This document shows, in pieces, positions 2,133-33,051 of a stretch of 64,000 nt of DNA. The notes beneath the pieces were generated by a model. That model was not told where the DNA came from, did no database searches, and saw nothing but the letters and a program-made list of their open reading frames with translations. This stretch comes from an uncultured Bacilli bacterium (GTDB taxonomy: Bacteria > Bacillota_I > Bacilli_A > RF39 > UBA660). Both the position numbers and the translations under genes were made by a program. The stretch lies in contig CAKOMK010000002.1 of NCBI GenBank assembly GCA_934096645.1, positions 55,383-119,382 on the forward strand, written 5' to 3'. The first letter of the stretch is position 1. The number at the start of each line of letters is the position of its first letter.

Positions 2133-2180
2133 TTGACTTTTATTTTTTAAGGCTTTACAATAAGCCTATAAAGGAGAATC

Positions 2181-2798: not shown

Positions 2799-2815
2799 AT
2801 TCTAGCTTTTTTATT
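2777..2815 (+). terminator. rho-independent terminator overlapping the stop codon of the 2181..2798 gene
   Basis: 11-bp perfect inverted repeat aagctagaatt/aattctagctt followed by TTTTTAT. Confidence 0.55.
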
Positions 2816-2871
2816 AAAAAAGTATTTATTTTTTTAAAAATTATGTTATAATGGATAAGAACTTAACTTTT

Positions 2872-2947
2872 GGCCTGCTAGCTCAGTTGGTAGAGCAACC
2901 GACTCTTAATCGGTGGGTCTAGGGTTCGAATCCCTAGCAGGCCACCA
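2872..2947 (+). tRNA. tRNA-Lys (anticodon CTT)
   Basis: Cloverleaf: acceptor GGCCTGC/GCAGGCC, D-arm GCTCAGTTGGTAGAGC, anticodon loop CTCTTAA, GGTTCGAATCC, CCA; extended -10 TGTTATAAT about 12 nt upstream. Confidence 0.85.
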
Positions 2948-2957
2948 AATATTGTTA

Positions 2958-2990
2958 ATTAAACTGCTAATGCAGTTTTTTGTTTATAAA
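2958..2990 (+). terminator. terminator after tRNA-Lys
   Basis: Hairpin aaactgc-taa-tgcagttt followed by TTTTGTTT. Confidence 0.5.
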
Positions 2991-2999
2991 AAAAGAGTT

Positions 3000-3410
3000 T
3001 TAATTCATTTTTAAAGCTCTTTTTGCATATTCATTTGCTTCACTTTTACCATTACTTAGGTGATACCATTCATTTAAATGTCTTTCATACATTAAAGTTC
3101 TTTTGTTTAGAACAATGCTTGTTTTCTTTAATTCTTCAATATCTCTTGCTAATTCATCTTTTCCAGCTTCTAAACTTGCTTTCTTACGTAATAGAGCAGC
3201 AATTAATCTATATTTTTTACTAACTATATCATAATGTTTTAAAGCATTTTCTAATTCAAAAATTCTAATAGTATTCGTTTCTAATTCGCGTACTTCTGAA
3301 AAAGATTCAACAACCTCTCCTAAATATTCATCATAATCACTTTCCAAATAAGTATAGCTATATAAACCCCTTTCATTTGGTACTGATTCTAATATTTTAA
3401 TTTTGTCCAT
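3000..3410 (-). CDS. hypothetical cytoplasmic protein (136 aa)
   Basis: ORF with AGAGAGG RBS; no recognisable motif. Confidence 0.5.
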   Translation of the reverse strand: MDKIKILESVPNERGLYSYTYLESDYDEYLGEVVESFSEVRELETNTIRIFELENALKHYDIVSKKYRLIAALLRKKASLEAGKDELARDIEELKKTSIVLNKRTLMYERHLNEWYHLSNGKSEANEYAKRALKMN

Positions 3411-3506
3411 AAAAACCTCTCTATAAATATATTATATTAGATAAAAATAGTTAATTCAAGTATATAAAATGTATAATTATATGATAAAATATATTTGGTG
3501 AAAAAT

Positions 3507-4463
3507 ATGAATAAGAAATTAATAATATCGCATATCGCAGATATAGATGGTTTAGGATCAGTAGTTCTATCAAAAATAATATTTAAAAATATAGATTATA
3601 TTTTAGTAGAATTACCTGACTTACCAAAAACAATAAAAGATTTAATTGATACAAATAAGTACAAAGAATATGAAGAAATATTTATAACAGATTTATCTAT
3701 CAATAATGACTTAATAAAATTAATTCAAGATCACAATGATTTAAAAATTAAAATAAAACATTTTGATCATCATGAAAGTGAAGTAGAAAATAATAGTATT
3801 GATTTTATAAATGAAGTTCCAATCAAAAATGGTATATTAACTTGTGGCACATCTTTATTTTATGATTACTTAAAAGAAAATTATAAAGATAGTTTTTTAT
3901 ATAACAAAGCTACTATTAGATTTGTAGAAGGAACAAGAAGTAGAGATACATGGGACTTTAAAAACAATGGCAATAAAGATGCAAATAAATTAGAAATAGT
4001 TCATTCGTATTATGGAAATGAATATTACATTAACAAATATATAGATGTTTTAAAGAATGATTTAGAGTTATTTAATGAAGGCGATAATATATTAATTAAA
4101 AGAAATGAAGAAGCACAAGAATATTACATAAAAGAATGTGATAAAAAACTAATAACATTTAACTTAGATGGCTATAAAGTAGGATGCGTTATCGCTGAAT
4201 CATATAGAAGTGAAGTAGGGAATGCATTATCATCAAATCATCCAGAATTAGACTATATTTTAATAGTTAATTTCTTTAGAAACTCATTTTCATTTAGGAC
4301 AACTAAAGATAATGTAGATGTATCACTAATAGCAAAAAAATATGAAAAGAATGGTGGAGGACATAAAAAAGCAGCAGGAATGAGTATTACTGCTGAAAAT
4401 ATTTGGTTAATAGAAAAAATAATAAACTGTTATAAAGACAAATCAAAAGAAGATACAAATTAA
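3507..4463 (+). CDS. nrnA: DHH/DHHA1 phosphoesterase, NrnA-like oligoribonuclease/pAp phosphatase
   Basis: Motifs HIADIDGLGS, FDHHES and C-terminal GGGHKKAAG. The ATG at 3507 with a GGTGA RBS is preferred over the TTG at 3495 in the ORF track. Confidence 0.65.
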   Translation: MNKKLIISHIADIDGLGSVVLSKIIFKNIDYILVELPDLPKTIKDLIDTNKYKEYEEIFITDLSINNDLIKLIQDHNDLKIKIKHFDHHESEVENNSIDFINEVPIKNGILTCGTSLFYDYLKENYKDSFLYNKATIRFVEGTRSRDTWDFKNNGNKDANKLEIVHSYYGNEYYINKYIDVLKNDLELFNEGDNILIKRNEEAQEYYIKECDKKLITFNLDGYKVGCVIAESYRSEVGNALSSNHPELDYILIVNFFRNSFSFRTTKDNVDVSLIAKKYEKNGGGHKKAAGMSITAENIWLIEKIINCYKDKSKEDTN

Positions 4464-10218: not shown

Positions 10219-12591
10219 TTATTTTTTATCCATAGTTAATTTATTATCATATGAAACAGCATTAATAGCAGTATCAATAAAACTATTTATATTGTCTCTA
10301 TATAACATCAAAACTTTTTTAGTAGTTTCAATAACTTCTTGATTATCAATTCCTAAGAATTGTGCAATTGATTCAGTTGAAAAATATTTATCATCAACAT
10401 AACCAAGTTTTAAAGATATAATTATAGCTTCTTTAATAGATAGTGTTTTAAGCATTTGTTCAAAAGTAGGGGTTCTAAGTAATTTAAGTATACTAGAATA
10501 TTCTTCTTTAGAAAACGTTTTGCTTTCCTCTACTTCCTCTACTCTGTTTTCTTGATTTTCAACTTCTGGTAAAGAAACAGGTGTAGTAGTTATTTGCTCA
10601 TCATCTTTAGATGCGATTGACTCATTATTACTTGATTCAATAACGGCTTCATTATCTTTTATATTAGGTACAGTAACTGCTTCCCCTACTTCTTTAACAT
10701 CAGATAAATTTTCATCTTTTGCTTCAATAGAATCATCATGTGTAACTGGAACATTAGAATTTAATAAAATTTTTCTAAGTCTAGGTATAATTACAGCATA
10801 ATATAGATTCTTTTCTTTTTTATTTAATTCAGTAAACGTAGGATTTTCTAAATCACCACCATGTCTTTTCATTAAAATATCATAGTGGAAAGAAGATAAT
10901 TGTTTAATAGCCTCATCGACTTTTTCCTTTGGATAATCTCCCATCAATTCATATACAGTTTTACATCTTATTTTAGGTGCATTTTCTACACTTTTTGCAT
11001 TTTTTTCTTTTTTCATATCCGCTGAATCCTCCACTTTGTTTTTATCTTTTTTATTTACTTCATCATTATAAGATCTAGACCAATCACCAGTTTCTCTATA
11101 TCTTTGTCTAAAATACTCCAAATTTTCTAATGATTTATCAGGGTCTTCAGTAAATATTACTAATTTTTTGGCATAGACACTTCTTCTGATAATCATTAAT
11201 GCTTTAGTTTCAATTTGTCTAATTCTTTCACGCGTAACATTATATAATTGACCAATTTCTTCTAATGTCATAGGTTCATTACCATCAAGACCATATCTTT
11301 TAATTAAAACTTCTACAGCTTGTCGTGATAAATTACATTTTTCTAGTAAATCTTGAACTTGATCTTTTAAGTCTACAGAATCATAATCATCTTCTACATA
11401 AGATAAACTATTTTTATTTAAAACTAATAAATCTTTAACTTCAGTATCACTATCATCACTGACTTTCTCATTTAAACTTGTAATATCAAACTGTGATTCC
11501 TGTAAAATATTTACAGTATCTACTCTAACTCCCATTTTTTTAGCAATTTCTTCATTACTTGGGGTTCTATTTAATTCTATAGTTAAATCATTAATGGCTT
11601 TAATATACATATTTCTTTTTTCTAGAACGTGAACAGGAATTCTAATAGCTCTTCCTTTTTCATTAATTGCTCTATTTATATATCCCTTTATATATGCAAA
11701 AGCATAAGTAGAAAATTTCAAGTTTCTAGATAAATCGAAATATTCTATTGCTTTCATAAGTCCAATATTGCCTTCTTGAACTAAATCAAGCAATGACATA
11801 CCTCTATCTTGAAATTTTTTAGCAACATTAACTACTAATTTTAAATTACTTTGAATAAACAGTTCTTTCGCATTTTCATCTCCATTTTTAATTTTTAGTA
11901 ATAGGTCTCTTTCTTGTTCTGTAGTTAATTGCTTATAACTTCCAATTTCTCTCAAATATGTACTTAATATATCTCTTTCAAAATATTTATTATCTTTATC
12001 AATATCGAATTCATCTTCATTATTTTCTTCTTGAATCTCAATATTATTGACCATGCAATATACTTCTATAAAAGAAACTAAAGTATCATTATCAAATAAT
12101 TTTTCAGCTTTTCCAAATAATATTGGATTCTTATATTTTTTAAAAATAGTTTCAGTCATTAAATATAATGGATTATCATTTTTTATTAATTTAATAATCA
12201 TATCTGGTTCTAAAATATAATTATATTGTTTAAGAAAATCATCTAAAATTGAAAAATAACTAATACAATCATTAACATTAGATAAATTAGTAAATCTTTT
12301 CTTAGTAAAATTATTAATTATTATAACAACCTTTTCTAAATCATTTAAATCATTATATACTTTTCTATCAAATCTTTTTTTAAGTTTATTTTTAATAAAT
12401 TTTTTATAAGTTACACTTTCATCAAATTCACTAATAGATTTTTCTATCTCATCTAATATAATATCACTAAACTCTTCACTAGTAATATCTAAATAGTCAT
12501 ATGCATCATAAAATTTACTTATCAAAGGAAATATCATTTTATATATTTGAACTTTATTTAATTGTTTAATTCTTTTTAAATTCAAATCCAT
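10219..12591 (-). CDS. rpoD: RpoD-like sigma-70 factor (790 aa) with a long C-terminal extension holding two extra region-4-like copies
   Basis: Regions 1.2 to 4.2 at aa ~210-470 (EGNIGLMKA, IRIPVHV, LSRQAVEVLIKRYG...TRERIRQIETKAL). Extra region-4-like segments at aa ~565-610 and ~716-766. AAGGAGG RBS. Confidence 0.8.
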   Translation of the reverse strand: MDLNLKRIKQLNKVQIYKMIFPLISKFYDAYDYLDITSEEFSDIILDEIEKSISEFDESVTYKKFIKNKLKKRFDRKVYNDLNDLEKVVIIINNFTKKRFTNLSNVNDCISYFSILDDFLKQYNYILEPDMIIKLIKNDNPLYLMTETIFKKYKNPILFGKAEKLFDNDTLVSFIEVYCMVNNIEIQEENNEDEFDIDKDNKYFERDILSTYLREIGSYKQLTTEQERDLLLKIKNGDENAKELFIQSNLKLVVNVAKKFQDRGMSLLDLVQEGNIGLMKAIEYFDLSRNLKFSTYAFAYIKGYINRAINEKGRAIRIPVHVLEKRNMYIKAINDLTIELNRTPSNEEIAKKMGVRVDTVNILQESQFDITSLNEKVSDDSDTEVKDLLVLNKNSLSYVEDDYDSVDLKDQVQDLLEKCNLSRQAVEVLIKRYGLDGNEPMTLEEIGQLYNVTRERIRQIETKALMIIRRSVYAKKLVIFTEDPDKSLENLEYFRQRYRETGDWSRSYNDEVNKKDKNKVEDSADMKKEKNAKSVENAPKIRCKTVYELMGDYPKEKVDEAIKQLSSFHYDILMKRHGGDLENPTFTELNKKEKNLYYAVIIPRLRKILLNSNVPVTHDDSIEAKDENLSDVKEVGEAVTVPNIKDNEAVIESSNNESIASKDDEQITTTPVSLPEVENQENRVEEVEESKTFSKEEYSSILKLLRTPTFEQMLKTLSIKEAIIISLKLGYVDDKYFSTESIAQFLGIDNQEVIETTKKVLMLYRDNINSFIDTAINAVSYDNKLTMDKK

Positions 12592-12670: not shown

Positions 12671-13420
12671 TTATATAAAAATAAGAATTAAAGAAAGAAA
12701 GCAAGCACAAATAACACCAACAAATAAGTAATCATTCTTTTTATATTTAATGACTTCCTTTAATATTTCACTAATTGAAAGCCCCACCATTAATCCACCA
12801 GTAAACATAAGTATAAATGAAAGCATTGTATCATTAATATAATCTTTTAAAAATATGTATGAAAGTACTGCTCCGATAGGCTCAGCAAGTCCTGATATTA
12901 ATGTATATTTAATCGCATTTTTTCGTCCTTTGCCACTATAATATAAAGGTATACTAATAGCTATTCCCTCTGGTATATTATGAAGTATAATTGCAATACA
13001 CATTTTAATACCAATCTTGATATTTGTATAAGCAGAAATAAATACAATAATTCCTTCTGGAAAATTATGTATCATTAAAGATATCATACTCAAAATACCA
13101 ATTTTATATAAATTTGATGATTCTTTTTTAGCATTTATTAATGAATTAATTCTACTTATAGATAAATATCCAAATAAAAATACTAGTAATGATATAATAG
13201 TTCCAAGAATAAATCCATAATTATTAGTTAAATCTATAAATGATTCAGGAATTAATTCAAAAATAGAAATAATCATCATAATTGTCATTGAAAAAGATAA
13301 ACAAAATACAATCATCTCATTAACTTTTTTAGTTTTAATAAATACTAAAAAACTACCAAGTACTGTAGATAACCCAGCTATTAATGATAATATTATAGGA
13401 CCAATTATTTCCATTTTCAT
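12671..13420 (-). CDS. ZIP-family divalent metal (zinc) transporter
   Basis: Eight TM helices with histidine-rich ZIP motifs HNFPEGI and HNIPEGIA. Start placed at the MKMEIIGP ATG; the upstream Leu-rich extension in the ORF track is a translation of tandem repeats. Confidence 0.7.
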   Translation of the reverse strand: MKMEIIGPIILSLIAGLSTVLGSFLVFIKTKKVNEMIVFCLSFSMTIMMIISIFELIPESFIDLTNNYGFILGTIISLLVFLFGYLSISRINSLINAKKESSNLYKIGILSMISLMIHNFPEGIIVFISAYTNIKIGIKMCIAIILHNIPEGIAISIPLYYSGKGRKNAIKYTLISGLAEPIGAVLSYIFLKDYINDTMLSFILMFTGGLMVGLSISEILKEVIKYKKNDYLFVGVICACFLSLILIFI

Positions 13421-13481
13421 ATTAAAAATATATACATTAATATTAAAATTATTACCATAATAATACTGGGTGGTGATAAAA

Positions 13482-13601
13482 ATGGCAAATGCTAGAAGCA
13501 ATGCAAGAATGAATTCTAGAGCAAGAGCTAATTCTAGAAGCAAATCAAATGCTAGAAGCAACTCTAGAAGTAAAAGCAATGCATCATCAAGATGTAAATA
13601 G
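13482..13601 (+). CDS. possible 39-codon micro-ORF MANARSNARMNSRARANSRSKSNARSNSRSKSNASSRCK encoded by the repeat
   Basis: ATG with GGTGGTGA 6 nt upstream; frame preserved through all repeat units; very basic N-[AS]-R-S repeats. Confidence 0.2.
   Translation: MANARSNARMNSRARANSRSKSNARSNSRSKSNASSRCK
13483..13600. repeat. tandem 12-nt periodic repeat with palindromic core (T/G)CTAGAAG
   Basis: About six units (aatgctagaagc, aattctagagca, aattctagaagc, aatgctagaagc, aactctagaagt) separated by 6-nt inserts, all in multiples of 3; lies in the ZIP/NlpC divergent intergenic region. Confidence 0.7.
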
Positions 13602-13650
13602 TAAAAGGATATTCGTTGAATATCCTTTTATTTTATGTTACTATAGAAAT

Positions 13651-15012
13651 ATGAATAGTAAGGTAGTTAAGAAGATATTAAGTACAATTTCAATTTTAGC
13701 AGTTACATCTAGTGTAACTTATTTTGCTTTAATAAAAATATACAGAAATAACGCTTACCCTTCAATAAAAGAAGCAACAGTTAAAATAACTAACGATGGG
13801 GTATTAAATATAAAATTTAAACTTAATGAAAATAAATTAAAACATAATAAAATTTATTGTGCTGAAACAAATAATATTGAAACAACAGATAAATGGATTT
13901 TAGCAAAAAATGATGAATGTAATATCAAGGTAGATGAAAATAAATCTTATACTATATATTTAAAAAATGAAAATAATGAAGTATATAAAGTTAGTAATAC
14001 AAAAAAACTAGGAAATATATTAAGTATGAGTTTTAATAAGGAAAAAATATATTTAGCAGTTAAAGGCACTTATGCCCCTACTCTTGATATTAAATCAGTT
14101 GGATATTTTAATAAGGAAGATATAAAGTACACAATTAACGATGAAAAAATAATTTCTATAGATAAAGATTTAAAAATAACTGGTCTTAAAGTTGGAAATA
14201 CTACTTTAACTGCAGAATATAAAGGAATTAAAACATCTACAGAAATCATAGTAACAGATCTTATTACTGTAAGACCTAAAAAATATAATAGTAAAAAACC
14301 TTATCTTCCATGCGGAAAATATAATGAAGAAGAAAATGATTTACTAGATGAGATTCTTAAAGATAGAGTTGATGAAGTTGGTTATCAAACAAGAGCCAGT
14401 GCTGTTGAAGCTGCAAGATTCTTAACTTTAGAATTTCCATATAAAATTAGATATTTTTCTGAAAATGGAAGAGCTAGTACAAATGGTATTGATGGTGAAG
14501 GAAGATATTATCATAAAGGCTTATATTTAGATGAATCAAGATTTACAAATATTAAAAAGAAAATGGCTGGACCTAAAACATGGGGATGTCAATTATATAG
14601 TAGACCTTCTCATGGAAATAGACCTAATGGGCTTGACTGTAGTGGCTTTATCACTTGGGTAATGCTAAATGGTGGATGGGATGTTGGAGATATAGGTGCT
14701 GGACTTGCTTCACACTTAGATTTAACAGACTACGGAAAAAGAATCAGATTTAATGCAGATGTAGTAGCGTCAGGAAAAGTTAAAGTTGGAGATTTATTAA
14801 GTTCAGGCGGACTAAGCGGTGGCCATATAGCTATGATAGCTGGTGAAGATGACGAATATTATTATGTTGCAGAAAGTTTATGGACTCCACCAGATGTTGC
14901 TGTAATTATTAAACCTTATTCAAAGAAAACTATATTTAATCGTTACTTCTATGTAATGTTAATGGATAGTTATTATAAAGAAGATGGAAAACTAACTAAA
15001 TTATGGTATTAA
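13651..15012 (+). CDS. membrane-anchored NlpC/P60-like cell-wall hydrolase with Big-like domains (paralog 1)
   Basis: N-terminal TM anchor; Ig-like segment ITGLKVGNTTLTAEYKG; C-terminal Cys/His domain (DCSGF, GGHIAMI). Confidence 0.7.
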   Translation: MNSKVVKKILSTISILAVTSSVTYFALIKIYRNNAYPSIKEATVKITNDGVLNIKFKLNENKLKHNKIYCAETNNIETTDKWILAKNDECNIKVDENKSYTIYLKNENNEVYKVSNTKKLGNILSMSFNKEKIYLAVKGTYAPTLDIKSVGYFNKEDIKYTINDEKIISIDKDLKITGLKVGNTTLTAEYKGIKTSTEIIVTDLITVRPKKYNSKKPYLPCGKYNEEENDLLDEILKDRVDEVGYQTRASAVEAARFLTLEFPYKIRYFSENGRASTNGIDGEGRYYHKGLYLDESRFTNIKKKMAGPKTWGCQLYSRPSHGNRPNGLDCSGFITWVMLNGGWDVGDIGAGLASHLDLTDYGKRIRFNADVVASGKVKVGDLLSSGGLSGGHIAMIAGEDDEYYYVAESLWTPPDVAVIIKPYSKKTIFNRYFYVMLMDSYYKEDGKLTKLWY

Positions 15013-15013
15013 A

Positions 15014-16348
15014 ATGAAAAAAAGAACAAAAAGAGACAAAAAACTAAAATTAAAGAAAAAATATGTAAGACTATTAAGAAAAATAAAAATATTTTTTATA
15101 AAAGTATTCTTAATTCTAATAGTCATCTTTTTAATTGTATGCATATATAAAAGAATCACTACAACATATAAAGAAATCAATATAAAAGATAATACAATAG
15201 AAATAACATTATCAAGTAAATATAAAGACTCAGAATGTATATTAAGTGCCACTACCCCAACAGATAATGATAAATGGATTAAAATATCAGATAATAAATG
15301 TGTTTCAAATATAGATACAGGATATAAGTATTTATTTATAAAAAAAGATAATAAAATTAAAAGAATAGATAATATATCAAAATATAAAATAAATGAAAAA
15401 GAAAACTTATATTTACCACCAGATGGTAATTATGAATACATAAAATATTATATTGGAGATTATAATTCTATTAAACCAGAATATAATGATAAAATAATAG
15501 ACTTTGTTAATGGTAAAATATCAAGTAAATCTATTGGTTCAACTACTCTAAAAGTGAGTATAAATGATAAAAGTTATAAAATAAATGTTACAGTAACAGA
15601 TACAATAGTAACTCCTCCAAAAGACGGATATGACTATGATAAAAGATATCTAAAATGTAATGAATTTAGTGAAAAAGAAAGCAAATTATTAGATGAAATA
15701 TTAAAGAATAAAATTAATGATGCTGGTTACAAAACAAGAGCTGGTGCTGTTGAGGCAGCAAGATTCTTAACTTTAGAGTTTCCATATAGAATAAATTATT
15801 TTTATGAAAATGGCAGACAAACAACAAATAATGTAGATGGCGAAGGAAGATATTATCATGAAGGACTATATCTTTCAGAAACAAAATATCAAAGTATAAC
15901 AGGTTCTAAAACAGGTCCTAAAATGTGGGGATGTTCACTTTATAGTAATCCTGCTAAAAAATATATGGATAACGGCCTTGACTGTAGTGGATTCGTATCA
16001 TGGGCATTATTAAACTCAGGATTTGATGTTAAAGATGTTGGAGCAGGTTTTTCAGTAAATAGTGACTTAACTGACTTTGGAGATCTTAAAACTCTAACAG
16101 AGTCTCTAGCAACAAGTAACACTATTAAACCAGGAGATTTACTTCATAGTAATGCAGCTGGTGGTCATATAGCTATTATAATTGGAATAGATTCTGAATA
16201 TTATTATGTAGCGCAAGCATTATGGTATGATGAAGTTGGTGTAATAATTTCAAAATATAAAAAGAATAACTTACCTAATTCATTTAGTGAAGTTGTATTA
16301 ATGGATAAATATTATATTAATGATGGAAATCTAACATATATGTGGTAA
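15014..16348 (+). CDS. membrane-anchored NlpC/P60-like cell-wall hydrolase (paralog 2)
   Basis: C-terminal domain shares conserved blocks with 13651..15012 (RAGAVEAARFLTLEFPY, GEGRYYH, DCSGF, GGHIAII); starts 2 nt after paralog 1. Confidence 0.7.
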   Translation: MKKRTKRDKKLKLKKKYVRLLRKIKIFFIKVFLILIVIFLIVCIYKRITTTYKEINIKDNTIEITLSSKYKDSECILSATTPTDNDKWIKISDNKCVSNIDTGYKYLFIKKDNKIKRIDNISKYKINEKENLYLPPDGNYEYIKYYIGDYNSIKPEYNDKIIDFVNGKISSKSIGSTTLKVSINDKSYKINVTVTDTIVTPPKDGYDYDKRYLKCNEFSEKESKLLDEILKNKINDAGYKTRAGAVEAARFLTLEFPYRINYFYENGRQTTNNVDGEGRYYHEGLYLSETKYQSITGSKTGPKMWGCSLYSNPAKKYMDNGLDCSGFVSWALLNSGFDVKDVGAGFSVNSDLTDFGDLKTLTESLATSNTIKPGDLLHSNAAGGHIAIIIGIDSEYYYVAQALWYDEVGVIISKYKKNNLPNSFSEVVLMDKYYINDGNLTYMW

Positions 16349-16350
16349 TA

Positions 16351-16384
16351 AAAAATCGACTAAATAAATAGTCGATTTTAAAAT
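16351..16384. terminator. bidirectional rho-independent terminator between NlpC paralog 2 and mntP
   Basis: Perfect 10-bp inverted repeat aaatcgacta/tagtcgattt flanked by A5 upstream and TTTTAAAA downstream. Confidence 0.6.
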
Positions 16385-16440
16385 GTTTATATATTAATAT
16401 AAATTTATACATACATTTTATAAAAACTCAAAAATAAGTC

Positions 16441-17004
16441 TTAAAACACCCCTAAATGTTCAAATAATATCTTAGTTCCAATAAGAATTAAAATAACACC
16501 ACCTACTATTTCAGCAATATTCTTAAATTTATTGCCAAAAACATTACCAATCTTAACACCAATAACAGAAATAATAAATGTAATAACACCAATCAAACTA
16601 AAAGATAAAACCATATTCTTACTACCATATAAAAAAGCATAAGCAATACCTATAGCCAAAGCATCAATACTAGTAGCAATAGCTAAAACCAACATAGATT
16701 TAAACTTCAAATCACCATAACTACCCTCTTCTTCATGAAAAGCTTCATAAATCATTTTACCACCAATAAATACAAGTAAAACAAAAGCAACCCAATGATC
16801 AATATTAGTAATTAAACTCTCAAACCTACTTCCAAGTAAATAACCAATTAATGGCATTAAAGCTTGAAAAACTCCAAACCACAATCCAACTTTAATAGCA
16901 TCTTTAAATTTAATATTCTTAAGTTCTAATCCAGTACATATAGATACAGCAAAAGCATCCATTGCAAGACCAACACTCATTAATATAGCTTCTAATATAC
17001 TCAT
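16441..17004 (-). CDS. mntP: manganese efflux pump MntP
   Basis: 187 aa, six TM helices, family motifs LAMDAFAVS and ATSIDALAIG. Confidence 0.75.
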   Translation of the reverse strand: MSILEAILMSVGLAMDAFAVSICTGLELKNIKFKDAIKVGLWFGVFQALMPLIGYLLGSRFESLITNIDHWVAFVLLVFIGGKMIYEAFHEEEGSYGDLKFKSMLVLAIATSIDALAIGIAYAFLYGSKNMVLSFSLIGVITFIISVIGVKIGNVFGNKFKNIAEIVGGVILILIGTKILFEHLGVF

Positions 17005-17879
17005 TTCTTATCTCCTTCACCATATGGATTAACATGTATAATAACTAAATAAATATCATCTATCTCTTTAATAATTTCTTTTTCTAATTTATTAGCTATT
17101 TCATGACTCTTAAAAGTACTCATATTTCCATCTACATAAATTGTAAAAGATATCTGATATTTGTATCCAACTGGAGTAGAATTAAAATGAATAACTTTCT
17201 TAACTTCTTCATGTTTATCTATAATTTTAAATACTTTATTTTTAGTTTCAATTGATATAGATTTATCCATCAAAACATCATAACTTTCTATAAATATTTT
17301 AATATATACTATAAGTATCCAAATAGATATAATAGTTCCAACTACCCCATCTAAAAAATATATTCCATATATACTAAATATACAAGAAATTAAGTTCAAA
17401 GTAGTAATAATACTATCATAAAAATGATCTTTTGAATTAGCTTTTAATAACAAATTATTATATTTTTTATGCAATTTATTAGTATAGAAATATAAAATCA
17501 ATTTAGTAATAATAGTTATTAAACATACAACTATTAACCATATAGAAAACTCATATGTTTTATTATTTATAAGTGAGCTAATAGAATCTTTAAGTAAGAA
17601 TAATGACATTAATATCATAGATATACTAATTAACATAGAATATATATATTCTGCTTTTCCATGTCCTAAATTATGATCTTCATCACATGGCTTACTTGAT
17701 ATTTTATTCCCTATAAATGTCATTAAAGATGAAAATATATCACCAGCACTATTAAACGCATCAGCCATCATAGCTTGACTACCAGTTATAAAACTAACTA
17801 TTCCTTTTATAATCATCAAAAATATATTACATATCATGCCAAACATTCCAGCTCTTTTAGTACTAGTATATCTATTCAT
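17001..17879 (-). CDS. cation diffusion facilitator family metal efflux transporter
   Basis: Six TM helices plus a C-terminal cytoplasmic domain, with CDF motifs in TM2 and TM5 (HGKAEYI). 4-nt overlap with mntP. Confidence 0.7.
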   Translation of the reverse strand: MNRYTSTKRAGMFGMICNIFLMIIKGIVSFITGSQAMMADAFNSAGDIFSSLMTFIGNKISSKPCDEDHNLGHGKAEYIYSMLISISMILMSLFLLKDSISSLINNKTYEFSIWLIVVCLITIITKLILYFYTNKLHKKYNNLLLKANSKDHFYDSIITTLNLISCIFSIYGIYFLDGVVGTIISIWILIVYIKIFIESYDVLMDKSISIETKNKVFKIIDKHEEVKKVIHFNSTPVGYKYQISFTIYVDGNMSTFKSHEIANKLEKEIIKEIDDIYLVIIHVNPYGEGDKK

Positions 17880-17931
17880 AATTTTTCTCCTTAATAATTT
17901 ATATTCAAAATATAACAGATATTTCTATCTG

Positions 17932-18849
17932 TTATTTTAAAAATCCATCTATAATAGCTTTTTCAGCTTCTCTAGCACTAAGCCCTAGAGACATAAGTTT
18001 AATAAATTGATCTCCTGCTATTTTACCAATTGTTGCTTCATGTACTAAAGTTGCATCTACACAAGCAGCATCTATTTCAGGAATAGATTTAACACGAGCA
18101 TTATCTTTAATAATCGCATCGCATTCAACATGACCATAACAATCAGCTTCACCAATCATATTAGATTCAAATGTTTGATTAGATTCATCTTCAGCAACAC
18201 TACGTGAAACAACATGAGCACTTGATTTATTTCCTTTAAGTAGTACTTCAAACATAGTCTTAGCATTTTGATTATTACTTGTATATATTTTTTCATTAAT
18301 AGTTAATTTAGAATTTTCATTAAGTACAGCTTTAGTAACTCTATTAGCATCATCTACTCCTTTAATTTGAGCAGTTTCCATAACCATAGTAGAATTATTC
18401 CCAAGTATAACCTCAGTAGTAGGATTAAGTATTCTCTTAGCTTCACCACTACCTTCTCCATAATGAACTTCATAGTATTTTACATTAGAATTTTCTTCAA
18501 TAAAGAATCTATGTATTCCATTATGAGCACTATCTTTATGACCGTGATTAGAAATTCCACATCCAGCAATAATAGATACATTAGAATTCTTTCCAATAAA
18601 GAAATCATTATAAACTATATCAGTCATACCACTTTTACTAACTAAAACAGGAATATCTACTACTCCATTAGAAGTATTATCTTTAACATATACATTAATA
18701 CCTTGTCCATCTTCTCTAGATTCAATATTAATATATTCATTAACTTTTCTTAAAACACCGTTACCATTTAATCTAATATTGTAAGCATCAGCACTTTCAT
18801 ATCTATTAGGTAATATTTTTTTAAGTAATTTTTCTTCTTCTTTATCCAT
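17932..18849 (-). CDS. short SufB/SufD-family Fe-S assembly protein (305 aa)
   Basis: Beta-helix SufBD fold signatures; partner of the adjacent sufC; shorter than canonical SufB. Confidence 0.6.
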   Translation of the reverse strand: MDKEEEKLLKKILPNRYESADAYNIRLNGNGVLRKVNEYINIESREDGQGINVYVKDNTSNGVVDIPVLVSKSGMTDIVYNDFFIGKNSNVSIIAGCGISNHGHKDSAHNGIHRFFIEENSNVKYYEVHYGEGSGEAKRILNPTTEVILGNNSTMVMETAQIKGVDDANRVTKAVLNENSKLTINEKIYTSNNQNAKTMFEVLLKGNKSSAHVVSRSVAEDESNQTFESNMIGEADCYGHVECDAIIKDNARVKSIPEIDAACVDATLVHEATIGKIAGDQFIKLMSLGLSAREAEKAIIDGFLK

Positions 18850-19570
18850 TATAAATCTCCTCCTTCTTACAACAAGGTTTACTTATAATAGAATTCATAA
18901 CATTCTCACAAGAATCAAAATTAACTATATTTCCATTTTCCATTAATATAACTTTATCTGCCATATTAAGAATCTTTTCTTGATGAGATATAACTAAAGT
19001 CATAGAATTATTATCATCACTAATTTGTTTAAAAATCTTGTTTAAATTTCTAAAACTCCATAAGTCAATTCCAGCTTCAGGTTCATCAAATATAGCAATT
19101 CTAGGTTTTCTAGCAAGAACAGTAGCAATTTCTATTCTCTTAAGTTCTCCTCCACTTAAAGACTTATTTACTTCTCTATCTATATATTCTAAAGCACATA
19201 ATCCTACTTTAGATAATATATCACATGCTTCTTTTTTATTAATTTGTTTATTAGAAGCAAAAGATAATAAATCATATACAGTAATTCCTTTAAATATTAC
19301 AGGTTGTTGAAAAGCAAAACCAATTCCTAAATTTGCTCTTTCATTTATAGATAAATTAGTAATATCTTCACCATCAAGTAAAATCTTACCACTGTCAGGT
19401 TTAATAATACCCATAATAATCTTAACTAATGTACTCTTACCACTACCATTTTGACCAGTAATAACATAGAATTTATTTTTATCTAATTTCAGATTTATAT
19501 TATTTAATATTTTTTTATTGTCTCTTTCAAAACAAATATCAATAAGTTCAATCATAATTACTCCTTTCAA
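18842..19570 (-). CDS. sufC: Fe-S cluster assembly ATPase SufC
   Basis: Walker A GQNGSGKST, ABC signature LSGGE, Walker B IAIFDEPE. Confidence 0.8.
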   Translation of the reverse strand: MKGVIMIELIDICFERDNKKILNNINLKLDKNKFYVITGQNGSGKSTLVKIIMGIIKPDSGKILLDGEDITNLSINERANLGIGFAFQQPVIFKGITVYDLLSFASNKQINKKEACDILSKVGLCALEYIDREVNKSLSGGELKRIEIATVLARKPRIAIFDEPEAGIDLWSFRNLNKIFKQISDDNNSMTLVISHQEKILNMADKVILMENGNIVNFDSCENVMNSIISKPCCKKEEIYNG

Positions 19571-19608
19571 ACAAAGAATATTATATCATTTGAAATATTC
19601 AAAATCAA

Positions 19609-20487
19609 TTAATCTAAGTCACTAAAATCAAGTTCTCCATAAGCATAAATATATGGACTTTTTAAAGGATATTTTTTATTTTGTACATTTAAATGATTTA
19701 CATTTCCTTCAATAGTATAAACATATTTTTTATCAGTTTTTTCGACTATACCAACATGATCAATAACGCCATTATTATTCCAATCAAAAAATATTAAATC
19801 ACCTTTTTTAGGACTATATTTATTAGAAAATTTTAATAAAGATTTTTCTTTATAATAATCTACACCTATCTTAACCCAAACAAACTTAGGAACTTTAGTA
19901 TTAAGTAAACCATTTTGATTAGCAACCCAGCTTACAAAAACAGCACACCATTCAACTCTATGATTAAATCCATACCAATTCCAATACTTTTCACCAGTAT
20001 TTCCAACTTCTTTAAGTGCAGTATTTACTATATTCTCACGAATAACTTTTTCTTTATTTAAATCATAATATAACTTATCTATATCAATAGAATCATAACT
20101 GTTTTTATCAAATAAAATTCTTAAAGTAATATAGTCATTCATCTTAAAATAATTAGTCAAATACTTTTGAGCAGTTTCTCTATCTAATTTAATTTCTAAA
20201 ACACTGCCAAGTTTATTCTTATACATTTTAACATCATAATCTTTAGTTAAATTATAAATATTATTAGTAAACCTAGAATAATCAAAATACTTATCAATCT
20301 TTTTAGCATTATTTTCTAAATAAGTATAATTTATATCAATAATATCATTATTAACAGAACTATTGCTTTCTTCATTATTATTTGGAAGACTAGCACTACT
20401 TTTAAAATCGCTGCAAGCATAAAAAACACTTATAATAACTAAAAGAAGAACAAATAAATAATAAAATACGTATTTTTTATAGTTCAT
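19609..20487 (-). CDS. secreted CHAP-domain peptidoglycan hydrolase
   Basis: Signal peptide; C-terminal CHAP domain with catalytic Cys in WCAVFVSW and His in HVGIVE. Confidence 0.65.
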   Translation of the reverse strand: MNYKKYVFYYLFVLLLVIISVFYACSDFKSSASLPNNNEESNSSVNNDIIDINYTYLENNAKKIDKYFDYSRFTNNIYNLTKDYDVKMYKNKLGSVLEIKLDRETAQKYLTNYFKMNDYITLRILFDKNSYDSIDIDKLYYDLNKEKVIRENIVNTALKEVGNTGEKYWNWYGFNHRVEWCAVFVSWVANQNGLLNTKVPKFVWVKIGVDYYKEKSLLKFSNKYSPKKGDLIFFDWNNNGVIDHVGIVEKTDKKYVYTIEGNVNHLNVQNKKYPLKSPYIYAYGELDFSDLD

Positions 20488-20582
20488 AAAACACCACAAC
20501 TTCCAATAAAAAATAATTAAGAATAATTTTAGCTACTATTCTTAATTATTATATCAAAATTAACTATTAATTGATAGTATTT

Positions 20583-21410
20583 TTAATCATTATAATCATC
20601 TAAAAAACTTTTATAGACTCCATCCTTTTTAGTACCAAGAACACAGTTCAAATTAACGTTATCTAGACTCTTAAATATATTATAATCAGCATTCTTATTT
20701 ACTTTTCTAAGATTTTTGATTAATTCTTTCATTTCTTTTCTCTTACTAGTTCCATCATTTATTAATGAACATCCTTCAGTAAATCTACATGCACAATTGA
20801 TAAATGTAAGTTCATTAAACTTTTTCCAAGCAATAATTGCTTCTTCTTTAACTAAATAAAGAGGTCTAATAAGCTCAATACCTTCATAATTATCAGAATG
20901 TAATTTTGGCATCATAGTTTTAATCTCAGAACCATATATCATAGATAATAATGTAGTTTCAATAACATCATCAAAATGATGTCCTAAAGCTATCTTATTG
21001 CATCCTAGTTCTTGAGCTTTATTATATAAATATCCTCTTCTCATCCTAGCGCACATATAACATGGACTCTTAGAATCAATATTAGCTACAACATCAAATA
21101 TATCACTTTCAAATATTTCAATTGGTACATTTAAAGTTTTAGCATTATCTATAATAAAATCTCTATTATATTGATTATAACCAGGATCCATAACAACATA
21201 TCTTGCTTTAAATTTTACTTTTCCATGTCTTTCTAATTCTTGAACACATTTAGCAAGTAAAAATGAATCTTTACCACCGCTTATACATACCATAATATTA
21301 TCATTTTCATTAATTAACTCATAATCTTGAACAGCTTTAATAAACTTACTCCATATTTCTTTTCTATATTTTTTAATTATAGTTCTCTCAATATCTTTAT
21401 ACTTTTCCAT
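20583..21410 (-). CDS. TtcA/TtuA-family PP-loop tRNA thiolation enzyme
   Basis: PP-loop SGGKDS; Fe-S ligand cysteines CYMC and CAC; adjacent to a cysteine desulfurase. Confidence 0.7.
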   Translation of the reverse strand: MEKYKDIERTIIKKYRKEIWSKFIKAVQDYELINENDNIMVCISGGKDSFLLAKCVQELERHGKVKFKARYVVMDPGYNQYNRDFIIDNAKTLNVPIEIFESDIFDVVANIDSKSPCYMCARMRRGYLYNKAQELGCNKIALGHHFDDVIETTLLSMIYGSEIKTMMPKLHSDNYEGIELIRPLYLVKEEAIIAWKKFNELTFINCACRFTEGCSLINDGTSKRKEMKELIKNLRKVNKNADYNIFKSLDNVNLNCVLGTKKDGVYKSFLDDYND

Positions 21411-21412
21411 TT

Positions 21413-22531
21413 TTACTCTTGCTCCTTATAAATATTATCAAACACCCTTAAAAATTCAAGAATTTCATCCATAGTAGTCAAATGAGATAAACTAACTCTA
21501 ATAGAAGACATAGATAAAGTTTTATCTTGAGTTAAAGCATATATCATTTTAGAAGGCGTTTCAGCTGGACAACATGATGTTTTAGTAGATACATATATAT
21601 TCTCATCATTAAATCTTTTTTGTAATTCAGTTGCTTTAATTCCTTTCACACTAAAATTAATAACATGAGGAATAGAATTATCACGATTATTAATAAACAC
21701 ATTCTTTTTAAGCTTTAAATCATCTTTAATAACTTTATTAAGTTTAGATATATATTCATATCTCTCATTCATTTTAGATAATGCGATTTCTAATGCTTTA
21801 TCACATGCAACAATACTAGCAGTCTCAGGCGTTCCACTTCTATATATAGTGGTAGATTTTCCTCCATTTATTTGAGGCTTTAAACTAACATGTTCTTTTT
21901 TTATAAGAATACTTATTCCTTGTAAACCATAAAACTTATGTGGTGTAATAGTAATTAAATCTACATTAGAAAAATCAATATCAACCTTCCCAACACTTTG
22001 ACTAGCATCACTATGAAAATAACAATTTGGATATTTTTTTAATAATTCACCAATTTCTAAAATAGGCTGTTTAAGCCCTATTTCACTATCAACAGCACAC
22101 ACACTAACTAAAATAGTATCATCTCTAATCATAGATTTTAAAGCTTCAATATCAATAAGACCATTAGAATTTATTGGTATTAACTCTACTTCAAATCCCA
22201 TTTCTTGCATAACCATCGCAGAACTAAGTATTGAATTATGTTCTAAACTACTTATAAGAACATGCTTTCCTTTATTTTTATATCTTTCACAAATACCCTT
22301 AATAACTAAATTATTACTTTCACTAGCTCCACTAGTAAATATAATCTCTTCCGGTTTTACTTCTAAATTTGAAGCTATATTAGAAACACTTTTAGAAATA
22401 AGTTCACGTGCTTTATTACCCATATCATGATTAACATTAGGATTACCATAATATTTCTTACTAACATCACAAAACACATCTAATACTTCACTTTCTACAG
22501 GAGTAGAAGCAGCATAATCTAAATAAATCAT
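21413..22531 (-). CDS. cysteine desulfurase (class V aminotransferase, NifS/IscS-like)
   Basis: PLP lysine in ITPHKFYG; motifs SGASESNN and SGTPE; the catalytic Cys is in the CCPAE region. Confidence 0.75.
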   Translation of the reverse strand: MIYLDYAASTPVESEVLDVFCDVSKKYYGNPNVNHDMGNKARELISKSVSNIASNLEVKPEEIIFTSGASESNNLVIKGICERYKNKGKHVLISSLEHNSILSSAMVMQEMGFEVELIPINSNGLIDIEALKSMIRDDTILVSVCAVDSEIGLKQPILEIGELLKKYPNCYFHSDASQSVGKVDIDFSNVDLITITPHKFYGLQGISILIKKEHVSLKPQINGGKSTTIYRSGTPETASIVACDKALEIALSKMNERYEYISKLNKVIKDDLKLKKNVFINNRDNSIPHVINFSVKGIKATELQKRFNDENIYVSTKTSCCPAETPSKMIYALTQDKTLSMSSIRVSLSHLTTMDEILEFLRVFDNIYKEQE

Positions 22532-22611
22532 ATTAATCCCTCTTTTTAACCAAACATATTATATCTTATTTTAAAGAATTAAAAAAGAACTTTTAACAGT
22601 TCTTATAAAAA

Positions 22612-23310
22612 TTAACACTTTCTTCTCAAATACTCACTATATATCATAGCAATTATAATAATTATTGCAGGAACTATATAAAAAGAAAAAGTATTATTAA
22701 TATTGAATATAGCAGTAGCATTAATAAAAGAATGAGCAATAATAGTTGGAATAATACTACCAGACTTAATAAATATCATAACAAATAAATATCCTAGTAT
22801 AAAAGCATAAAATATTTGAAATAAAGTAGATATCATAGGTGCACCATTTAATAGATTAACTATATGACCAGCACCAAAAGTAACAGATGTCACAATAATA
22901 GCTCTCTCAATATCAGTTTTCTCAATCATTTTAAATAAAAATCCCCTAAAAATAACTTCTTCAATAAAACCTACACATATCATACTAATAACATAAAATA
23001 ATATTTCACTTCCACTATTATTAATATTTATTCCATTATATAAATTAACACACGCAACAATTACTAATGGAATAAAATAAAGGCATTTACGAGTATTTTT
23101 AGGCTTAACCAATCCAAAATACTTAAGATAATTATTTTTACAAATAAATGCTGTCAAAATAGATACTAAAATCAAATTAACAATTGCTGTTTTATAACTA
23201 TAATTACCAAAATATTGAATACATAAAGAATTACTAATCACATAAATCAAAATTAATCCAATAACAAACCACAATTCATGTTTTTTATATAACTTATTCA
23301 TTTCCTTCAC
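22612..23310 (-). CDS. CPBP (CAAX protease/Abi) family intramembrane metalloprotease
   Basis: Motifs EEVIFRGFLF, FGAGHI and HSFIN across TM helices. Confidence 0.65.
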   Translation of the reverse strand: MKEMNKLYKKHELWFVIGLILIYVISNSLCIQYFGNYSYKTAIVNLILVSILTAFICKNNYLKYFGLVKPKNTRKCLYFIPLVIVACVNLYNGININNSGSEILFYVISMICVGFIEEVIFRGFLFKMIEKTDIERAIIVTSVTFGAGHIVNLLNGAPMISTLFQIFYAFILGYLFVMIFIKSGSIIPTIIAHSFINATAIFNINNTFSFYIVPAIIIIIAMIYSEYLRRKC

Positions 23311-23504
23311 CCAAAATCTACAAATCTATGTCTTTTATAAGTAAGATTTCCTTCCATTCCTTTTGAATACTTTTTATATATAGAATATTTAACAGAAAAT
23401 TCTTTAATACCTTCACTAGTTTCAAAATATAAATTATATTCTTTCTTTAATTATATCATCATTTTTTAATTTTCCCATCAATAATAACACTTCTGATATA
23501 AGTT

Positions 23505-24737
23505 TTACTTTCTTTCTAAAACACAAACTGTTTCTACATGTTTAGTTTTATTAAACATATTTATTCCTTCTATTTTAGTAAGATTATAATTAATTAATAA
23601 TTCTATATCTCTTTTTAATGTTTTAGGATTACATGATACATAAACTATTCTTTTAGCTTTAGAATTATTTAAATACTTAATTACATCTTTAGAAAGTCCA
23701 CATCTAGGAGGATCTACTACAATAACATCATAATTACTTTTAGAAACTATTTTAGCATCACCACATATAAAATTAATATTATTTAAATTATTTAGTTTTT
23801 TATTAATATTAGCATTCTTTATAGAACTAGAATTAATCTCTACACCAGTAACACTATTAAAATTCTTACTTAAATATATTCCAATAGTTCCGGTACCACA
23901 ATATAAATCTAATAAATTATTACCATTTAACGCATACTCTCTTACTTTATCATACATTATTTTCATAGTTTCAGTATTAACTTGAAAAAAAGCATCAGGA
24001 TATATACTATATTTAAAATCATTAACATCCATAATTATATAAGGATTGCCATAAATAAGCTTATTATTTAAATAAACAGAATTAACTTGATCAAATAATC
24101 CTTTGTCATTAAAAGTCTCTCTACTTCCTTTAAATACAACCATAATCTCATTATTAGAAACTCTAACTACAACAGATTCAATATTATATAAATCACATTC
24201 TTTTAAATAATTATATATTTTATTAATTCTTTCATCAACTAACAAACACTCATCAAAACAAATTAAATCATGACTATTCTCACTATAATAACCAATCTTA
24301 CCATTCATAACATGAAAAGTAGCTTTATTTCTATAATTAAATTCATTATTAGTTAATATATTAATATCATCAATATTAAATAACTCACACAACTCTTTTT
24401 TCTTATTTTCTAGTTCTATATCAAATGAAGTATGTAAAAAAGAACATCCACCACATTCAAAATATTTATCACAAACTTTATTATTTCTAAATTTACTTTT
24501 TTTAATAAATCTTATTATTCTTCCAACTGCATATCTCTTTTTAATATCTATAATTCTTATAGTAACTTCTTCATCTTTTAAAGCGCATGGAACAAATACA
24601 ACTAAATTATCTATTCTAGTTATTCCATTCATATTATTATCTATATCATTTATAATTACATCATATTCATCATTTAATTTCATACTTTTCTCCACTAATA
24701 AATCAATTATATCATACATCATAATAAAAAGTCTCAA
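23505..24737 (-). CDS. RlmD/RumA-family 23S rRNA (uracil-C5)-methyltransferase
   Basis: TRAM domain, Fe-S cysteine cluster FECGGCSFLH, SAM motif LDLYCGTGT, catalytic DPPRCG. Confidence 0.75.
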   Translation of the reverse strand: MRLFIMMYDIIDLLVEKSMKLNDEYDVIINDIDNNMNGITRIDNLVVFVPCALKDEEVTIRIIDIKKRYAVGRIIRFIKKSKFRNNKVCDKYFECGGCSFLHTSFDIELENKKKELCELFNIDDINILTNNEFNYRNKATFHVMNGKIGYYSENSHDLICFDECLLVDERINKIYNYLKECDLYNIESVVVRVSNNEIMVVFKGSRETFNDKGLFDQVNSVYLNNKLIYGNPYIIMDVNDFKYSIYPDAFFQVNTETMKIMYDKVREYALNGNNLLDLYCGTGTIGIYLSKNFNSVTGVEINSSSIKNANINKKLNNLNNINFICGDAKIVSKSNYDVIVVDPPRCGLSKDVIKYLNNSKAKRIVYVSCNPKTLKRDIELLINYNLTKIEGINMFNKTKHVETVCVLERK

Positions 24738-24751
24738 AAGAGACTTAATTA

Positions 24752-27045: not shown

Positions 27046-27126
27046 TTTTACTACACCTGCTATTATAAAGTATAACAAATAAATAAGTATTATTCAACAA
27101 ACAAAAAAGTATGTATAAAACACACT

Positions 27127-30522: not shown

Positions 30523-30540
30523 ATCTTATAATTTTTATTT
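30511..30540. terminator. bidirectional terminator shared by convergent rarA and hydrolase paralog A
   Basis: 11-bp perfect inverted repeat aaattataaga/tcttataattt flanked by A and T runs, spanning both stop codons; duplicated at 34708..34740. Confidence 0.5.
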
Positions 30541-32946: not shown

Positions 32947-33014
32947 TTATTCTAATAATAGGATACTACGTAATTAGTAAAAAGTAAATGAAATTTGATT
33001 TAGATGACAAAACA

Positions 33015-33045: not shown

Positions 33046-33051
33046 CTTATG

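Follow-up and report, generated by a model that had tools for sequence, protein, structure and literature searches.

Anatomy of the small gene

The stretch of DNA analyzed here (the window) comprises 64,000 nucleotides (nts) of contig CAKOMK010000002.1 from an uncultured Bacilli bacterium of the RF39 lineage, with a G+C content of ~24%. Between its divergently oriented gene for the ZIP-family metal importer ZupT and the first of two genes for NlpC/P60-like paralogues lies a tandem repeat, located at 13482–13601. The original prediction offered two readings of this tract, as an array of operator sites in the DNA or as a micro-open reading frame (ORF). The tract is a monocistronic gene, furnished with its own bipartite promoter, a near-perfect Shine–Dalgarno (SD) sequence, and a terminator. 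The gene is very probably real and translated, and it belongs to a previously undescribed orthologous family at a fixed, zupT-adjacent locus.

The repeat itself is as had been described. It consists of seven 12-nt units (AAY-[GT]CW-AGA-RSN) at 13488–13589, broken by three 6-nt spacers (Table 1). The repeat motif AAT[GT]CTAGAAGC recurs as three exact copies and one near copy inside 84 base pairs (bp). When up to two mismatches are allowed, AATKCTAGAAGC finds four matches in the same 84 bp (three exact, one with two mismatches), while the remaining 16 matches of the window are scattered and carry two mismatches each. As the window-wide total of 20 is at the level expected by chance (17 ± 4), the array is non-random by clustering, not by number. 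The copies of the repeat family are spaced by 42, 18, 30, and 36 nts, each a multiple of six, and at the array TRF detects periods of 30 (score 85) and 18. Read in frame, the 12-nt units code for N-[AS]-R-[SMA] tetrapeptides, and the product bears a net charge of ~+10.5 with a computed isoelectric point (pI) of ~12.

The flanking signals are equally well defined. The SD matches the anti-SD at 9 of 10 positions, and the terminator, with a computed free energy of −12.7 kcal/mol, is the sole terminator-like site in 1.5 kb, where 0.1 would be expected. An alternative start at GTG 13470 was dropped; it sits within the SD, and one relative (L001) has a stop directly upstream of the ATG frame. At the gathering threshold, Rfam recognizes no RNA family at the locus. 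An AlphaFold2 model made from the single sequence, which in the absence of an alignment is uninformative, has a mean pLDDT of 74 and one N-terminal helix spanning residues 4–18.

Table 1. Features of the small-gene locus and its immediate neighbors (window coordinates)
Feature	Position	Strand	Description
Repeat unit 1	13488		AATGCTAGAAGC
Repeat unit 2	13500		AATGCAAGAATG
Repeat unit 3	13512		AATTCTAGAGCA
Repeat unit 4	13530		AATTCTAGAAGC
Repeat unit 5	13548		AATGCTAGAAGC
Repeat unit 6	13560		AACTCTAGAAGT
Repeat unit 7	13578		AATGCATCATCA
Small protein gene	13482–13601	+	ATG 13482, 39 codons, TAG 13599–13601; product MANARSNARMNSRARANSRSKSNARSNSRSKSNASSRCK
Promoter −35 ACATT	13434–13438	+	Exactly 17 nts 5′ of the −10; family [G/A][A/C/T]AT[T/A]
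Promoter −10 CATAATA	13456–13462	+	Family consensus CATAATAATAAC
SD GGGTGGTGAT	13468–13477	+	4 nts 5′ of ATG 13482; family consensus AGGTGGTGAT, kept in nearly all members
Intrinsic terminator	13602–13634	+	Perfect 13-bp stem 13602–13614/13618–13630, 3-nt loop, TTTTA; begins directly after the stop codon
zupT	12671–13420	−	ZIP-family metal importer, 249 amino acids (aa); PF02535; ZupT NF003243, 208 bits; divergent neighbor
NlpC/P60-like paralogue 1	13651–15012	+	453 aa; weak NLPC_P60 and Big_2 hits; downstream neighbor outside the unit
Direct repeat box A	13403–13421		AATTATTTCCATTTTCATA; ATT(A/T)(T/C)CCAT(A/T)AA...
Direct repeat box B	13447–13465		AATTATTACCATAATAATA; 44 nts from box A

A family conserved in frame and composition

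Relatives of the locus (labelled L001, L002, and so on) were drawn from a genome collection as the 80 closest zupT loci, and a second, ORF-independent sample came from metagenome contigs scanned with a 19-mer covering the −10-to-SD region. Among the 80 loci fetched, nearly all of those from uncultured low-GC Bacilli hold a small ORF of odd composition at the same place, and in at least 23 of the closest loci an ORF of the same composition stands divergent from zupT. The metagenome scan returned 43 matches, 28 of which lead into a family ORF (27 complete and one ended by the contig edge). The hosts are uncultured low-GC Bacilli of the gut and rumen, whose records are filed under uncultured Bacilli, “Tenericutes” UMGS1021, Clostridium sp. 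CAG:628, and Erysipelotrichaceae RUG12335, along with some mis-binned metagenome-assembled genomes. None of the true Clostridium zupT loci inspected carries the small gene.

The coding evidence is drawn from 41 distinct family genes, all of which are open in frame +0. Pooled over 17 nearest-neighbor pairs, the ratio of nonsynonymous to synonymous polymorphism (pN/pS) is 0.23 in this frame, compared to 0.40–2.98 in the other five. A single pair illustrates the pattern: L007 and L080 differ by six synonymous and no nonsynonymous changes. Insertions and deletions among relatives are of 3 or 6 nts and preserve the frame, as in L002, where a 3-nt deletion yields a protein of 38 instead of 39 aa. 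The SD and the start codon are conserved in the family alignment, bearing out, together with the in-frame indels and the terminator that follows the stop, the micro-ORF reading of the original prediction. One might still suppose that a low-complexity, purine-rich repeat had remained open by chance. Indeed, composition alone keeps some frames open, since antisense frame −1 is open in 32 of the 41 genes. Such a spurious ORF would not, however, account for the conservation of SD, start, stop, and terminator, for a low pN/pS confined to frame +0, or for the complete lack of acidic and hydrophobic residues in lineages that share no more than ~45% identity in zupT, and this explanation is very improbable.

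What the family conserves is its composition. The 42 distinct homologous peptides range from 28 to 54 aa with a median of 41, and closely related subgroups share the same length. Asn (25%), Ser (24%), Arg (17%), and Ala (17%) predominate, followed by Lys (8%), Thr (3%), and Cys (2.3%). Asp, Leu, Val, Phe, Trp, and Pro are missing altogether, though they lie one mutation away from codons in use; Ile is likewise missing, Glu amounts to 0.8%, and His is virtually absent. Not one alignment column is invariant, which points to selection on composition, charge, and length and not on a fold. Codon usage is that of the long genes of the window. Individual lineages have repeats of their own, for example ARSN, SRNS, and ANSNARSNAR. 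The 12-nt repeat in the DNA mirrors the coding of an N-[A/S]-R-[S/N] tetrapeptide repeat, which different lineages have lengthened, shortened, and rearranged in frame. A further claim, that the locus is prone to slippage, is weakly supported. The in-frame 3- or 6-nt indels and one relative with an expanded (NSSR)n run speak for it, while the shared lengths within subgroups speak against it. So does the exact 39-aa product, called but unnamed on at least 22 contigs (91 index blocks; those shown are all human-gut assemblies), whose identity across samples implies stability within the species and argues against rapid slippage.

Divergent variants occur at the edges of the family. In L019 and L071 (~3880–3970, minus strand), a 28-aa variant, MKTQKTNRTSKCNKKTNRCKRESSSSEE, sits at the same spot upstream of zupT; it keeps the CATAATA and AGGAGGT signals and has an acidic tail. 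A 35-aa variant in L007, L010, and L080 ends in HNENNAR.

Curated collections do not recognize these proteins. Pfam (E ≤ 0.01 for the window peptide, E ≤ 10 for 26 family members) and NCBIfam gave no family hit, the families of small, acid-soluble proteins of the spore (SASPs) included. The weak Pfam matches were of composition only, to the SR region of coronavirus (CoV) nucleocapsid and to RSRP (E 0.24–4.5, not significant). A profile search of the PDB found no match at E ≤ 10; a profile of 13 family peptides run against 5.8 billion proteins produced 6875 word candidates, none at E ≤ 1e-3; an exact look-up of 10 family peptides in a collection of 15 billion proteins found none present; and phmmer against 1.84 billion representatives returned just two low-complexity matches within long proteins. 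Since the 39-aa product is found in many assemblies, the family is better described as called but unclassified than as uncalled.

The palindromes as a probable codon artefact

The rival reading of the repeat takes it as DNA: (near-)palindromic TTCTAGAA sites bound by a dimeric regulator of the two divergent promoters. There are five CTAGA cores in 90 bp, one of them within a perfect TTCTAGAA, and Ser-Arg is written TCT-AGA somewhat more often in the family (33 of 60 pairs) than in the genes of the window (9 of 27). More broadly, 48% of the family's [S/A/T]-R pairs are CTAG-forming xCT-AGA, compared to 37% in ordinary genes. Yet the repeat sits in the transcribed and translated part of the gene, downstream of the promoter, which lies 5′ of the ORF. 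The sequence, number, and spacing of the units vary among relatives, while frame and amino acid composition are kept; substitutions fall preferentially at synonymous sites of frame +0; and the genome shows no avoidance of CTAG (173 occurrences against 134 expected). Since an xCT codon (Ser or Ala) followed by AGA (Arg) generates the palindrome through ordinary codon usage, the TCTAGA sites are incidental, and an operator array is a far-fetched explanation. The predicted binding of a zinc-responsive regulator fares no better. In a consensus search, 13400–13650 contains neither a Bacillus-type Zur box (TCGTAATNATTACGA, up to three mismatches) nor an AdcR box (TTAACNNGTTAA, up to one mismatch).

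The terminator invites a different regulatory reading, in which translation of the ORF, as a leader peptide, governs the hairpin at 13602–13630 and hence the downstream NlpC/P60 genes. The stop codon abuts the terminator stem, and NlpC/P60-1 begins 20 nts past the T-run. In most relatives, however, the gene 3′ of the small gene is a convergent deoB or xerD, and both ORF and terminator are still kept; a hairpin and T-run follow 34 of the 41 family genes, with stems unrelated to each other. No alternative antiterminator pairing is evident, only a simple hairpin, and a separate, plausible promoter precedes NlpC/P60-1, TTGAAT (13616–13621)-N17-TACTAT (13639–13644), which as read from the sequence ends 6 nts 5′ of ATG 13651. 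Because NlpC/P60 lies downstream in the window's sub-clade only, a leader-peptide role for it is excluded, and attenuation is given hardly any probability; by the same token, the control region once proposed to be shared with NlpC/P60 does not hold up.

A bipartite promoter of possible forespore type

The most informative noncoding element of the locus is its promoter. In an alignment of 35 distinct family promoters, two blocks, [G/A][A/C/T]AT[T/A] and CATAATA(ATAAC), stand exactly 17 nts apart, separated by an unconserved spacer. The sigma-G consensus of Bacillus subtilis is reportedly GHATR-N17/18-CATWHTA. Scored against this consensus of another organism, 22 of the 35 promoters match with at most one mismatch, compared to 1.8% of random 62-mers drawn from the window, and 34 match with at most two, compared to 20%. 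The sigma-A pattern TTGACA-N16–18-TATAAT, in contrast, fits the family no better than the null. Three housekeeping RNA promoters of the window (two tRNA loci and the S-adenosylmethionine (SAM) riboswitch of metK) have an extended −10, TGTTAT(A/T)AT (TGTTATAAT), a form that the small gene lacks. Mapped forespore promoters of Clostridioides difficile include sspA (TGAATT...CACAATAAT), spoIIR (TGAATA-N17-CATAATT), and CD1567 (GAATA...GTAATAATAAT) (PMC3789822, Table S6). The TGAATT of sspA resembles the −35 of many family members. On these likenesses, the small-gene promoter may be of the forespore (sigma-F/sigma-G) type, an assignment that falls somewhat short of an even chance.

Several observations weigh against it. 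A two-block position weight matrix (PWM) built from 44 C. difficile sigma-F/G promoters does not separate the family (median 5.8 bits) from the null (4.4 bits). The sigma-G match was scored post hoc, with the motif already in view, and the members of the family are not independent of each other. In the loci with short intergenic regions, the window included, the −35 block shares its position with the zupT promoter of the opposite strand, which confounds the conservation of the −35 there; in the window it overlaps the TG and −10 region of that promoter, as judged from sequence. As for a regulon, a regular-expression scan of the window for further sigma-G-type promoters found one match, which is intragenic, where ~5 were expected, and so was uninformative.

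A second candidate forespore-type promoter was noted separately at 41419–41480, where GTATA-N17-CATAAATA is followed by an SD, AGGTGATC. It precedes a gene for a TIGR04086/DUF3792 membrane protein (41478–41834), whose divergent neighbor encodes a YetF/DUF421 protein.

Relationship to zupT and the neighborhood

The proximity of zupT raises the question of shared function. The minus-strand ORF drawn at 12671–13579 proved, as predicted, to be ZupT fused to a Leu-rich antisense reading of the small gene. Homologues align from ATG 13420, where the ZIP/ZupT match begins, and not from TTG 13579, and public calls give 249 aa; the 53-codon extension is antisense to the small gene and differs in length in L001 and L002. 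A −10-like TATATT (13427–13432) ends 6 nts before the zupT start. Neither zupT nor NlpC/P60-1 has an SD, and together with −10-like hexamers 6 nts from their ATGs this suggests leaderless mRNAs for both. In L130–L132, public calls begin NlpC/P60-1 at ATG 13549 (487 aa), over the last 53 nts of the small gene and its terminator; a start at 13651 (MNSKVVKK..., with a signal or transmembrane segment) is more plausible.

Two copies of a direct repeat lie at the divergent genes: box A lies over the zupT start and box B over the small-gene −10. Their CCAT-to-CCAT spacing in relatives is either 34/35 or 44 nts, a difference of one helical turn, and some loci retain box A outside zupT. The pair may be a regulator site or the remnant of a duplication.

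A functional partnership has been considered in which the two genes are co-regulated from their common 62-nt region under zinc limitation, the small protein acting in zinc economy, for instance by replacing a small zinc-ribbon protein without itself needing zinc or by modulating the transporter. The small gene adjoins zupT in nearly all of ~60 loci, usually divergent and with interdigitated promoters, and most members contain 1–3 Cys, often within SRCK. These cysteines are not conserved, however, and His, as noted, hardly occurs. Boxes of the Zur or AdcR type are absent from 13400–13650, no palindrome is conserved, and Pfam and NCBIfam reveal no similarity to L31, L33, L36, S14, or S18 paralogues. 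Moreover, the whole neighborhood is syntenic in the clade, running mgsA, xerD-deoB (convergent with the small gene), the small gene, zupT (divergent), a parB-like helix-turn-helix gene, and mnmA, so that inheritance may suffice to explain the adjacency. In several relatives, insertions of 0.9–2.8 kb separate the small gene from zupT (L008, L023/24/26/48, L063, L082, L102), and in L061 zupT is inverted into tandem orientation; none of these changes has disrupted the small gene or its promoter. The divergent arrangement is thus dispensable, inherited synteny accounts for the adjacency, no sign of regulation by zinc emerged, and a zinc-limitation role is improbable.

Four of the insertion-bearing loci (L023, L024, L026, L048; ~2100–4000) contain a two-gene insertion (447–483 aa and 88–107 aa) on the small-gene strand between the small gene and zupT. 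It is flanked by a duplicated zupT 5′ end (CCAATTATTTCCATGATA), suggestive of a target duplication by a mobile element. On the other side, the window (13651–27100), L001, and L002 carry a block of ~13.5 kb between the small gene and deoB, which are adjacent in most relatives (L003–L017). The block encodes MntP and a CDF exporter, two NlpC/P60 paralogues, SufBD with its ATPase, and a CHAP/Amidase_6 protein, as well as a PP-loop protein, a cysteine desulfurase, a TrmA-like methylase, a CAAX protease, and an NAGPA protein. Between L002 and the window, the zupT–NlpC segment is 84–86% identical while parB-like and mnmA are 99% identical, which indicates mosaic recombination.

Beside zupT, at 10219–12591 on the minus strand, the window encodes a 790-aa protein of the sigma-70 family. 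Regions 1.2–4 occupy residues 207–469, with extensions of ~200 aa on the N-terminal and ~300 aa on the C-terminal side; its best NCBIfam models, of RpoD/RpoS type and the MZA anti-phage sigma factor MzaA, all score far below cut-off. The gene is missing in L002 and L129 (the latter has a 190-aa gene instead) between flanks that are 99% identical, marking it as a strain-variable insertion.

Elsewhere in the window, a SAM riboswitch (RF00162, 45.5 bits) at 39338–39419 (minus strand) lies upstream of metK (38228–39265) and has the TGTTATAAT promoter. Three large ORFs (803, 531, and 822 aa) at 30535–37205 (minus strand) are devoid of Pfam hits and lie in a stretch of ~30% G+C, compared to ~24% elsewhere. 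At 52940–54013 (plus strand), a small yidD-like ORF is directly followed by a gene for a ZnuA-family substrate-binding protein (53156–54013), beside which no ABC permease or ATPase gene was recognized. Compared by eye, the upstream regions of this znuA-like gene and zupT share AT-rich chance similarity only, and no common operator.

Proposed function and sporulation context

The architecture of the gene suggests a role for its product. A tiny hydrophilic protein, a monocistronic gene, a strong SD, a dedicated terminator, and a sigma-G-type promoter together make up the signature of minor or gamma-type SASP genes. The family may thus represent a new group of small basic repeat proteins, SASP-like or protamine-like and possibly expressed in the forespore, a tentative reading that stands a little below even. 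Its members are probably abundant nucleic-acid-binding polycations, whose extreme charge and Arg/Ser/Ala repeats are reminiscent of protamines, Chlamydia Hc2, and Coxiella ScvA. In the proposed mechanism, the small protein would be produced on a large scale from a forespore-type promoter and, as a polycation, would coat or condense nucleic acid as a functional analogue of SASPs or protamines; it might also serve as a nitrogen-rich store of amino acids. A SASP-like role, specifically, is possible but doubtful.

The lineage provides a reason to entertain it. Erysipelotrichales, RF39, RFN20, and ML615J-28 are reported to lack essentially all known SASPs even though many of their members are predicted or known sporulators; RF39 keeps spoIIM, and sporulation ability is predicted to be mixed in related orders (Field et al., 2024; PMC10868615). 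Similarly, Clostridium innocuum sporulates in the absence of any known ssp gene, and its SASPs have been termed “enigmatic” (Galperin et al., bioRxiv 10.1101/2022.02.25.481979). It is conceivable, if unlikely, that the family is the “missing” spore protein of this reduced-genome Bacilli radiation, a new and non-homologous class of SASP. As a protamine-like Asn/Ser/Arg repeat polycation, it would be made in the forespore from a sigma-G-type promoter for DNA protection or storage.

This proposal faces a number of difficulties beyond those of the promoter. Neither Pfam nor NCBIfam reveals sequence similarity to any SASP family, and no cleavage motif of the GPR type (E-[IF]-[AG]-S-E-[FT]-type) was found in family proteins. 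Inherited synteny is an equally good explanation of the zupT adjacency. Neither the window nor another ~20 kb around it (~10 kb per side) yielded a secure identification of any sporulation-specific gene. The window does encode a SpoIIM-like protein (TIGR02831, E 3e-18) and a PdaB-like deacetylase, but both matches fall below their family cut-offs, which leaves sporulation and a sigma-F/G system putative for the lineage. No sigF or sigG gene was seen. The window also contains a gene for a SigH-like sigma factor and several cell-wall genes (an alanine racemase, NlpC/P60, a CHAP amidase, and the PdaB-like deacetylase).

A vegetative role offers another account that is possible without being probable. 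The same family would be associated with the nucleoid, RNA, or ribosome during growth or stationary phase, with no link to spores, and transcribed from an atypical housekeeping promoter or that of another alternative sigma factor; in kind, it would resemble bS22, bL37, Thx, and histone-like repeat proteins. Composition and the very strong SD suggest an abundant nucleic-acid binder, the weak Pfam matches are to SR-rich RNA-binding regions only, no sporulation gene is demonstrated in the window, and the C. difficile matrix does not single out the family promoter. On the other hand, the promoter is devoid of the TGnTATAAT form of the genome's housekeeping promoters and matches sigma-A at the level of chance, and ribosomal proteins are usually conserved in sequence, whereas this family is conserved in composition only.

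The forespore and vegetative readings carry different implications. If the sigma-G-like promoter does stand for expression in the forespore, the family would be a candidate answer to a question posed by both comparative-genomics papers cited above, how spore DNA is protected in lineages with no known SASPs, and its gene would be a simple marker with which to test uncultured lineages for sporulation. Should the protein prove vegetative instead, it would be a new bacterial polycation of protamine-like or SR-like character. In either case, a family under purifying selection for an extreme composition spans many uncultured gut and rumen Bacilli. Proteins of such size and composition fall outside every curated family and are missed by homology-based annotation, and gene callers leave the small ORF unnamed or let it distort its neighbors (zupT at 302 aa in the ORF track, NlpC/P60 from an overlapping ATG). 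A further lesson of the locus is that codons alone, xCT followed by AGA, can produce a palindromic “repeat array” in AT-rich DNA.

Comparison with known systems

New in sequence, the family belongs to a general kind already known, that of small, basic, low-complexity proteins and SASP-like genes. Among known systems, the minor and gamma SASPs of Bacillus (SspE; SspG–SspP; Tlp) offer a close parallel in gene layout. They too are very small, hydrophilic, and of low complexity, some with internal tandem repeats; their genes are monocistronic, with a strong SD and their own terminator, and have a sigma-G-type promoter, as the family possibly does; and they form lineage-restricted, fast-evolving families. 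Unlike them, the family is far more basic and has neither sequence similarity nor a GPR motif, and gamma-SASP is Q/N/G-rich and does not bind DNA. The alpha/beta SASPs (SspA–D, SspF, Ssp4) share with it the possible sigma-G-type promoter and the proposed role, which would be to saturate and protect the DNA of a dormant cell. They are conserved helix-turn-helix-like proteins of 60–75 aa with invariant motifs, whereas the family has no conserved column, no GPR site, and no conserved DNA-binding helices.

Two regulatory systems also bear a likeness. Attenuator leader peptides are encoded by short ORFs with runs of few codons and an intrinsic terminator directly after; in this family, the downstream gene is variable and often convergent, no antiterminator is present, the SD is very strong, and purifying selection maintains composition and length. 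The Zur-regulated C− paralogues of L31, L33, L36, and S14 likewise are small basic proteins encoded beside a zinc importer gene, but the family has no homology to them, no Zur box, and no conserved sequence.

In the character of the protein itself, counterparts are protamines, Chlamydia Hc2, and Coxiella ScvA, which are developmental polycations that condense the nucleoid. These proteins also consist of Arg/Lys/Ser/Ala-rich repeats in variable number, have a very high pI, and act through charge and composition, not through a fold. They are not homologous to the present family, which is Asn-rich rather than dominated by Arg, belongs to Firmicutes-type Bacilli, and is a putative DNA binder.

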